In this document: in pieces, positions 6,353 through 7,745 of the stretch | Position numbering within the stretch: the stretch's first letter is position 1 | Layout: every line of letters begins with the position of its first letter | Source of the DNA: a virus | Lineage: Duplodnaviria > Heunggongvirae > Uroviricota > Caudoviricetes | Direction: 5' to 3' (one strand) | DNA length: 25,567 nucleotides | IMG/VR virus record: IMGVR_UViG_2925914267_000006 | Coordinates: 1-25,567 of that record | Notes under the pieces: model-generated | What the model was told of the DNA's origin: nothing | What the model saw: the letters and a program-made list of their open reading frames with translations, nothing else | The model's database searches: none | Position numbers and translations under genes: made by a program

Positions 6353-6386
6353 ATAACTTTTAGTAAATAATTGGCGTATTAATTAG

Positions 6387-7581
6387 GGAAGGTGCGAATA
6401 AGCAGGTCATTTCTTCCCAAGCTGACTCGCTGATTAAAATTTCTCGGATCTGGGCCGATTTTTTTCCCGCAAACACATCGAATCAGCCTATTTAGGCTAT
6501 TTTTTCCACCATTTCTGGCGTTATTTCCGGTTTTTACTGAGATCTCTCCCCTGACGTATCATTTGGTCCACCCGAAACAGGTTGGCCAGGGTGAATAACA
6601 TCGCCAGTTGGTTATCGTTTTTCAGCAGCCCCTTGTATCTGGCTTTCACGAAGCCGAACTGCCGCTTGATGATGCGAAACGGGTGCTCCACCCTGGCACG
6701 GATGCTGGCTTTCATGTATTCGATATTGATGGCCGTTTTGTTCTTGCGCGGATGCTGCTTCAAGGTTTTTACCTTGCCGGGACGCTCGGCGATCAGCCAG
6801 TCCACATCCACCTCGGCCAGCTCCTCGCGCTGTGGCGCTCCTTGGTAGCCGGCATCGGCTGAGACAAATTGCTCCTCTCCATGAAGCAGATTACCCAGCT
6901 GATTGAGGTCATGCTCGTTGGCCGCGGTGGTGACTAGGCTGTGGGTCAGGCCACTCTTGGCATCGACACCAATGTGGGCCTTCATGCCAAAGTGCCACTG
7001 ATTGCCTTTCTTGGTCTGATGCATCTCCGGATCGCGTTGCTGCTCTTTGTTCTTGGTAGAGCTGGGTGCCTCAATGATGGTGGCATCCACCAAAGTGCCT
7101 TGGGTCATCATGACGCCTGCTTCGGCCAGCCAGCGATTGATGGTCTTGAACAATTGACGGGCCAGTTGATGCTGCTCGAGCAGGTGGCGGAAATTCATGA
7201 TGGTGGTGCGATCCGGCAGGGCGCTATCCAGGGATAATCGGGCAAACAGGCGCATGGAGGCGATTTCGTACAGGGCATCTTCCATGGCACTGTCGCTCAG
7301 GTTGTACCAATGCTGCATGCAGTGAATACGCAGCATGGTCTCCAGCGGATAGGGCCGTCGGCCATTGCCCGCCTTGGGATAAAACGGCTCGATGACAGCG
7401 GTCATATTCTGCCATGGCAGAATCTGCTCCATGCGGGAGAGGAAAATCTCTTTTCGGGTCTGACGGCGCTTAGTGCTGAATTCACTATCGGCGAAGGTGA
7501 GTTGATGGCTCATGATGTCCCTCTGGGATGCGCTCCGGATGAATATGATGATCTCATATCAGGAACTTGTTCGCACCTTCC
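6387..7581 (-). mobile_element. IS5 (1195 bp) flanked by a 4-bp direct repeat TTAG
   Basis: The termini ggaaggtgcgaataag (6387) and cttgttcgcaccttcc (7581) match IS5 ends as recalled; TTAG is found at 6383-6386 and again at 7582-7585. Confidence 0.92.
6521..7513 (-). CDS. insH: IS5 transposase InsH
   Basis: 330-aa ORF ([35 protein letters not shown]...) matching InsH as recalled. Confidence 0.93.
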
Positions 7582-7604
7582 TTAGTTGATTGTTATCTCT
7601 GACT

Positions 7605-7745
7605 TCATACTCCTGCTCCTGTCAGGGTTTTGGCGTAACTCTTCAGTATTCGGTAATCGGTCAAAACAGAACCGGGGAAACGATATAAGCGCAGGCGCAC
7701 CCAGCGGCGGCGAAGACGTTCTGCCATATAAGACTCAAACATCAT
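7605..7745 (-). CDS. ylcG: YlcG small protein (46 aa)
   Basis: Translated by hand from the minus strand as [46 protein letters not shown]. It follows the rusA stop directly and is absent from the ORF track because it is under 60 aa. Confidence 0.7.

Follow-up and report, generated by a model that had tools for sequence, protein, structure and literature searches.

What became of Q, the antiterminator gene expected upstream of the late promoter, in a lambdoid prophage where an insertion sequence (IS) now occupies its place? This question is raised by IMG/VR record IMGVR_UViG_2925914267_000006, of which the whole stretch analysed, 25,567 nucleotides long, is called the window below. The window is made up of a lambdoid prophage of the DLP12 family, which has its early-right and late genes on the minus strand. 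A first-pass annotation of the same DNA had read there the minus-strand order rusA, ylcG, IS5, a porin gene on the other strand, a tR'-like terminator and a pinholin gene, and had proposed that IS5 sits where Q is expected. The open reading frame (ORF) list, a terminator scan and Pfam searches gave the same order, and sibling prophages that are 99.9 to 100% identical to the window on the flanks do carry a Q gene, quuD, at this position. The comparisons reported here point to a deletion of quuD that was very probably mediated by IS5 and that left the late unit intact.

Sibling prophages sharing the whole mosaic of the window were found by an exact look-up of its P22AR protein. Three of them (L029, L030 and L035) match the window at 100% identity from position 1734 to 6386; the same holds for L030 and L035 from 7582 to 8970, where L029 shows a single mismatch, and all the siblings compared are at least 99.9% identical over 10234-18376. 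These three prophages carry an intact quuD of 127 codons for amino acids, and neither IS5 nor IS600. The intact gene is 384 base pairs (bp) long and lies between ylcG and the porin gene in the IS-free relatives. Compared with the siblings and with another intact relative, L001, the window lacks exactly 438 bp, made up of the 62 bp preceding quuD and of the gene itself except for the final 8 bp. The two flanks of the window map to L001 positions 5055 and 5494; quuD occupies 5048-5431 in L001, and the left-flank alignment runs to 5055. An alignment to related prophages, which the first-pass annotation had suggested as a check, thus located the missing segment, a 438-bp piece including nearly all of quuD. 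The features at the end points are as follows.

6379-6386, minus strand: remnant of quuD, its last 8 bp (5 coding bases and the stop codon), recognised by alignment to L001.

6383-6386: TTAG site 1, which reads CTAA on the minus strand and belongs to the last codons of quuD, also present in the intact L001 and L030.

6387-7581, minus strand: IS5 of the ISKpn26 type, 1195 bp, in the place of quuD, recognised by its terminal inverted repeats and its identity to annotated copies.

6521-7513, minus strand: transposase ORF of IS5, 330 amino acids, with PF05598 and PF01609 recorded for the exact protein.

7582-7585: TTAG site 2, which reads CTAA on the minus strand and falls in the spacer between ylcG and quuD, 62 bp ahead of the start codon of quuD, pre-existing in relatives.

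The IS5 had been described in the first-pass annotation as flanked by an intact TTAG duplication. This description has to be abandoned, as both TTAG sites pre-exist separately in intact relatives, 438 to 442 bp apart, which means that the flanks of IS5 were not contiguous DNA. Instead of a 4-bp target-site duplication, IS5 is bordered by two separate sites, and at both end points the CTAA read on the gene strand fits the target consensus of IS5, C(A/T)A(G/A) (PMC11677980). Judged from these alignments, the TTAG pair is two distinct target sites joined by a deletion, and not a duplication. Each end of the deletion falls exactly at an IS terminus, as in IS-mediated deletions for which intact close relatives exist, and this coincidence indicates IS5 as the cause. 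Since the siblings are near-identical to the window yet carry quuD and no IS5, the event is recent and lineage-specific. More broadly, quuD is kept in 9 of the 10 contexts listed for the exact YlcG protein and in 7 of the 8 listed for the exact P22AR protein, the exceptions being L032 and L013.

No other Q gene was detected in the window. Searches by tblastn and phmmer --max with lambda Q, QuuQ of Qin, QuuD and VT2-Sakai Q, covering all six-frame ORFs of at least 30 amino acids, gave a best expectation value (E) of 0.4, and Pfam scans of 37 window ORFs (most genes and the largest shadow ORFs) revealed no Q family. The Q82 family (PF06323) was covered by the Pfam scans only, without a seed protein. 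The segments left out of these scans match relatives annotated with the Prokaryotic Genome Annotation Pipeline, in which quuD is the sole Q. The earlier statement that no Q-like ORF exists in the window is therefore upheld: upstream of the late promoter, 8 bp of quuD are left, and the tblastn and phmmer searches found no Q of the PF06530 or PF03589 type. The protein that was lost is well defined from the siblings. Their 127-amino-acid QuuD belongs to PF06530, the Q21/Q933W family (E = 8.5e-54), and matches the solved Q21 structures 6P18 and 6JNX (E = 7.6e-8). It is 78-81% identical to the Q proteins of Shiga toxin 2 (Stx2) phages and 100% identical to Q of phage Kati. E. coli phages commonly encode such a Q, with 416 phage records holding one that is 78-100% identical to QuuD.

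The IS5 itself has the ends and size of its family, about 1195 bp bounded by 16-bp imperfect terminal inverted repeats, GGAAGGTGCGAATAAG and GGAAGGTGCGAACAAG, of the form GGAAGGTGCGAA(T/C)AAG. Copies carrying the annotation 'IS5-like element ISKpn26 family' match it over its full length with 99.2-99.4% identity, and its identity to IS5B of K-12 is 91.4%. Its main ORF encodes a DDE transposase (PF01609) and has the orientation of the early-right and late genes of the phage. This transposase has 330 amino acids versus 326 annotated for ISKpn26 copies, and the element 1195 bp versus 1196; the 1-bp difference seems to alter the last residues of the transposase (3' end of the ORF, 6521-6560). The 330-amino-acid variant is not private to the window copy, being listed in 40 blocks of a public collection. 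The exact protein is also encoded at other loci, among them one in assembly GCA_001912315.1, which holds sibling L028 with its intact quuD, so that a donor copy exists in that background. Copy/paste is reported to be the main mechanism of IS5 transposition (PMC11677980).

How could a single IS5 come to join two sites that lie apart in all intact relatives? By the route that we favour, a single IS5 would have inserted at one CTAA site, and an intramolecular transposition into the second CTAA would then have produced an adjacent deletion of quuD and the 62 bp upstream. The single IS5 remaining would be flanked by identical tetranucleotides, and would thereby mimic a simple insertion. Among elements of the IS5 family, IS903 generates adjacent deletions. 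We give this route about an even chance of being the right one, leaning to it because it requires fewer events, two against three.

The three-event alternative is that IS5 inserted in the same orientation at both CTAA sites, and that homologous (RecA) recombination between the copies then removed quuD together with one of them. It was one of the two origins put forward in the first-pass annotation, and it fits the data. Its product is identical to the structure observed, and sequence alone gives the same product for this recombination and for an adjacent deletion. Moreover, each site is separately occupied by IS5 in another strain. In E. coli NH-21 (L004), the left end of an ISKpn26-type IS5 is found exactly at site 2, and in E. 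coli MLI110 (L005) the left end of a classical IS5 lies exactly at site 1, both in the orientation seen in the window. In these two strains, which are unrelated to the sibling lineage, the IS abuts unrelated DNA at its far end, which indicates that IS5 has mediated large rearrangements in the region, anchored at the two TTAG sites. No strain with both IS5 copies was found among 5,426 complete E. coli genomes and, with the additional event required, we consider two-copy recombination a serious candidate whose chance falls somewhat short of even.

The second origin proposed earlier, a loss of Q before IS5 came in, fared much worse. Here, quuD would first have been lost by a spontaneous deletion between the TTAG microhomologies, and IS5 would later have entered the remaining TTAG and duplicated it. 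Such a history is formally compatible with the TTAG-IS5-TTAG arrangement, in a region that is AT-rich and offers 13 YTAR sites in 600 bp. It demands two unrelated events at the same 4 bp, however, and the deletion ends coincide with the IS termini. No IS-free 438-bp scar was found in the same 5,426 genomes, a search in which the low-complexity filter of BLAST could hide the AT-rich 64-mer. Against it stand also the listed contexts in which quuD is kept, those of YlcG and P22AR given above and all 10 of those of the porin. We hold this history to be very improbable. Finally, a true IS5-quuD-IS5 structure collapsed into one IS copy by the assembly, for which 1.2-kilobase (kb) direct repeats are a known source, is hardly credible, as the window runs unbroken across four different IS elements, which is typical of a long-read or finished assembly, and a unique 438-bp insert would survive.

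Two further observations concern IS5 insertions in this neighbourhood. The IS5 of NH-21 links the prophage to a tail-fibre-assembly/appY end, and that of MLI110 links it to chromosomal elaD; in a third strain, the IS is placed about 40 bp further into quuD. A hotspot of IS5 at quuD was considered and is unjustified, because four other DLP12-type prophages have their IS5 elsewhere, in the moron region near P22AR, and the independent cases near quuD are few.

What, then, is left of the late unit? Its elements, and the lysis genes that follow, are listed here.

4710-4737, minus strand: PR' late promoter, with a -35 box TTTACG at 4737-4732, a 16-nucleotide spacer, a -10 box TATGCT at 4715-4710 and a predicted start near 4703, placed by homology.

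4645-4679, minus strand: intrinsic terminator of the tR' type, AAACCCGC-CGTCGA-GCGGGTTT followed by a T-rich tail, with the hairpin at 4679-4658, found by terminator scan, alignment and fold.

4319-4534, minus strand: essD, a holin of 71 amino acids of the P21 holin S family (PF04971, E = 2e-35), identical to the protein of L003.

3970-4314, minus strand: YdfR-like DUF1327 gene (PF07041), within the lysis cassette.

3093-3626, minus strand: lysozyme of 177 amino acids with a hydrophobic N-terminus (PF00959).

2635-3096, minus strand: Rz spanin (PF03245; coordinates mapped from the annotation of a sibling), with Rz1 embedded at 2694-2876 (ORF list).

The promoter and the adjacent Q-utilisation/pause region were recognised by homology only. 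A conserved block, TAAGAGTGGTTAC, lies in the initially transcribed region between PR' and the hairpin, and tR' stands about 25-60 nucleotides downstream of the predicted PR' start. K-12 DLP12 and phage Kati have a module (promoter, initially transcribed region and terminator) of identical sequence, and PR' of VT2-Sakai is homologous to it; the intrinsic terminator between PR' and the late genes is conserved in all three. When PR' is placed in this way in Sakai, a 258-nucleotide transcript to the second terminator is predicted, which is the PR'-to-tR' RNA length reported in PMC7547250. In the window, the module is situated between the porin and holin genes, some 1.5-1.65 kb away from the position of Q. 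A PR' directly downstream of quuD was also looked for and rejected: the promoter scan is empty there, the alignment to the region following Q in Sakai is unconvincing, and the homolog lies between the porin and holin genes. On the strength of these alignments, the late promoter is still present and did not neighbour Q in the first place, the two being separated in the DLP12-type phage family by an inserted moron, the porin gene. The lysis genes and the PR'-tR' unit are identical to those of the siblings and untouched by the IS5 event, and the first-pass annotation was right that the late terminator and lysis genes remain.

In Q cassettes, PR' is active and its transcripts end at tR' unless Q is loaded at a promoter-proximal pause (for Q21, bioRxiv 10.1101/651190; for Stx phages, PMC6266700 and PMC7547250). 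Without QuuD, RNA polymerase leaving PR' would stay unmodified and stop at tR'. Induction of the prophage would then fail to switch on essD, the lysozyme gene and Rz/Rz1 unless a compatible Q were supplied in trans. The expression defect is thus likely to be one of failed antitermination at tR', as predicted from the arrangement of the locus, and not of a missing promoter. For K-12 DLP12, Rueggeberg and colleagues are said to have described, in 2013, how Q allows transcription to pass the terminator and enter the lysis genes (cited in PMC7918800).

Several points weigh against this account of the locus, in its structure or in its effect. The 5,426 complete E. coli genomes contain neither junction of IS5. 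No exact match turned up in species-representative genomes, scanned for both junctions, or in metagenome contigs, scanned for the ylcG-side junction only. The few matches that cover the junction queries to a high extent have IS5 at other positions or are rearranged. With the junctions absent from the collections searched, the allele has no independent replicate. Nor was an intermediate bearing quuD together with IS5 at a single site or at both sites seen among the sibling contigs read, so that the order of the IS5 events is one that we infer. The position of PR' in the window follows from homology and not from a mapped start site. As for expression, a compatible Q could possibly come from the rest of the genome, beyond the 25-kb window, and the lysis genes of K-12 DLP12 reportedly also respond to RpoE and Hha, independently of Q (cited in PMC7918800).

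These last two points are the core of a rival reading, in which the structure is as described and expression is little affected, thanks to a compatible Q from another prophage or to Q-independent control. In its favour are the RpoE and Hha response just mentioned, an intact PR'-tR' unit whose conserved core is common to the PR' of Stx phages, and the wide occurrence of QuuD-like Q proteins among the 416 phage records. Conversely, Q proteins are reported to be specific to their own qut sites, lambda Q being inactive on H-19B (PMC6266700), and the spacer between the -35 and -10 boxes differs between the PR' of the window and that of Sakai. The evidence is also confined to the window, with nothing outside in view. 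We regard little or no effect on expression as unlikely, failed antitermination at tR' being the outcome that we expect.

A more speculative view, which we find doubtful, is that the loss of Q was a selected step of domestication, one that disarms lysis but spares the porin, Bor and NACHT morons. IS5 now ends the early-right operon in the same orientation, and derepression could drive ins5A by read-through, thereby coupling SOS induction to IS5 transposition. In K-12, read-through from nmpC drives the most active IS5 copy (PMC11677980).

The surroundings of the deletion are those of a DLP12-family prophage at argU. The int gene occupies the right end (24404-25567), where the window stops inside int, leaving the tRNA beyond the edge. 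Alignment to the prophage of E. coli STEC17-190, in which intD abuts tRNA-Arg, gave 97-99.7% identity, and the gene order and the position of the intD end agree as well, the tRNA itself being outside the window. From right to left on the minus strand come a cI-like repressor gene, a cro/YdaS-like and a YdaT-like gene, O, P, a NACHT gene and a P22AR/Bro-N antirepressor-like gene. They are followed by ybcN (split by an IS600-type element), ninE, ybcO, rusA, ylcG and IS5. Beyond IS5 are found the porin gene (plus strand), the terminator hairpin, essD, the DUF1327/YdfR-like gene, the lysozyme gene, Rz/Rz1 and bor (plus strand). The immediate neighbours of the deletion are the following.

7742-8104, minus strand: rusA, from the ORF list and the annotation of relatives.

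7605-7745, minus strand: ylcG, the last early-right gene ahead of the deletion, from the ORF list; the exact protein has PF26818 in relatives.

6191-6378: intergenic region between quuD and the porin gene, retained with 100% identity to the siblings, with a terminator of the porin gene on the plus strand at 6328-6345 (terminator scan).

5108-6190, plus strand: porin of the NmpC/Lc type, intact, 360 amino acids, a moron between Q and PR' (exact protein, PF00267 and PF13609).

The gap from the ylcG stop codon to IS5 measures 23 bp, or 19 bp without the TTAG, close to the 20 bp given in the first-pass annotation. The exact porin protein occurs in many genomes, and it is next to quuD in each of the 10 contexts listed. 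Within the late unit, the lysis cassette (3096-4331) is a mosaic, starting with an essD of the DLP12 type and continuing with a YdfR-like gene and a 177-amino-acid lysozyme as in Qin of K-12 (ydfR-rrrQ), in replacement of rrrD.

In all, four IS lesions are present in the window: IS1 at the left edge, IS600 in ybcN, an IS629-type element in the exonuclease gene, and IS5. The IS600-type element (8971-10234), a 1264-bp member of the IS3 family with TG...CA ends and a 3-bp GTT duplication, interrupts ybcN near codon 13, with orfA and orfB in the orientation of the early-right operon. The siblings 99.9-100% identical to the window lack this element. The second IS3-family element, of the IS629/IS1203 type (20632-21941, 1310 bp, ends TGAACCGCCCCGG, 3-bp GAT duplication), sits in the 5' part of a lambda-exonuclease-like gene and contains an ALIL frameshift pseudoknot at 20967-21083. 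A 99.9% identical copy lies in the DUF1327 gene of sibling L033. As for IS1, the window begins about 55 nucleotides inside it (1-713; InsB, PF03400). IS1 ends at 713, about 345 bp from the nohD start expected from relatives, and the genes for packaging and structure may have been deleted or moved elsewhere.

Some other features lie in the early region. Two RNAs scored above the Rfam gathering score on the minus strand, the C4 antisense RNA (11422-11507, 72 bits) and isrK (11532-11604, 61 bits), both directly upstream of the Bro-N/P22AR antirepressor-like gene (10758-11375). With this gene they look like an antisense-controlled module of the P1/P7 immI kind, hosted by a lambdoid prophage. The NACHT NTPase gene (11987-13940, minus strand) has a frameshift near its 3' end, giving ORFs at 12192-13940 and 11987-12217. 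The protein has 631 amino acids in L030 and L035, and in L028 and L031 the gene is split differently, near the 5' end. Beside the cI-like repressor gene, at 17862-18725 on the plus strand, a 287-amino-acid DUF7946/DUF7947 protein is encoded, which is common to the siblings; STEC17-190 has two small hypothetical genes at that position.

Taken as a whole, the loss of Q in the window is an ordinary case of a cryptic prophage decaying through IS activity, the allele being unseen in the collections searched and its kind well known. It leaves the understanding of lambdoid phages and of IS5 unchanged. What it illustrates is that an IS can delete the master switch of a phage and still look like a simple insertion, since its target preference gives the same four bases at both ends. 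For annotation, this means that matching flanks of IS5 are no proof of a simple insertion, and that in DLP12-type prophages the late promoter should be sought past the porin gene rather than beside Q. For the host, it means a prophage that is probably unable to trigger its own lysis genes.

Among known systems, DLP12 of K-12 (qsr') is the obvious comparison. The order ybcN-ninE-ybcO-rusA-ylcG-[quuD]-porin (reversed)-essD-lysozyme-Rz/Rz1-bor is shared, and both prophages have an IS5 in the Q-porin neighbourhood. The lesions differ, however. K-12 keeps quuD and has a classical IS5B within the 3' end of nmpC, which inactivates the porin, whereas in the window the porin is intact, quuD is deleted, the IS is of the ISKpn26 isoform and its orientation relative to the late genes is opposite. 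The window also has the Qin-like ydfR and 177-amino-acid lysozyme genes in place of rrrD. The Q21/Q933W-type cassettes of phage 21 and VT2-Sakai resemble the locus in that the Q of the siblings falls in PF06530, and that PR', TAAGAGTGGTTAC, the hairpin and the T tract are homologous to those of Sakai. In Stx phages, PR' overlaps Q or directly follows it, while a reversed porin gene intervenes in the DLP12-type family; compared with them, the window has no stx genes and no tRNA genes, and its Q is gone. The deletion is of the same kind as the adjacent deletions and IS-IS recombination events known from prophage decay, with ends at the IS termini, consensus sites, the look of a simple insertion, and three further IS lesions in the same prophage. 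The intact module is displayed by the viable phage Kati, a complete isolated phage in which Q is present: it has the same order of Q, reversed porin-like gene and holin gene, an identical PR'-tR', and a Q that is 100% identical to QuuD.

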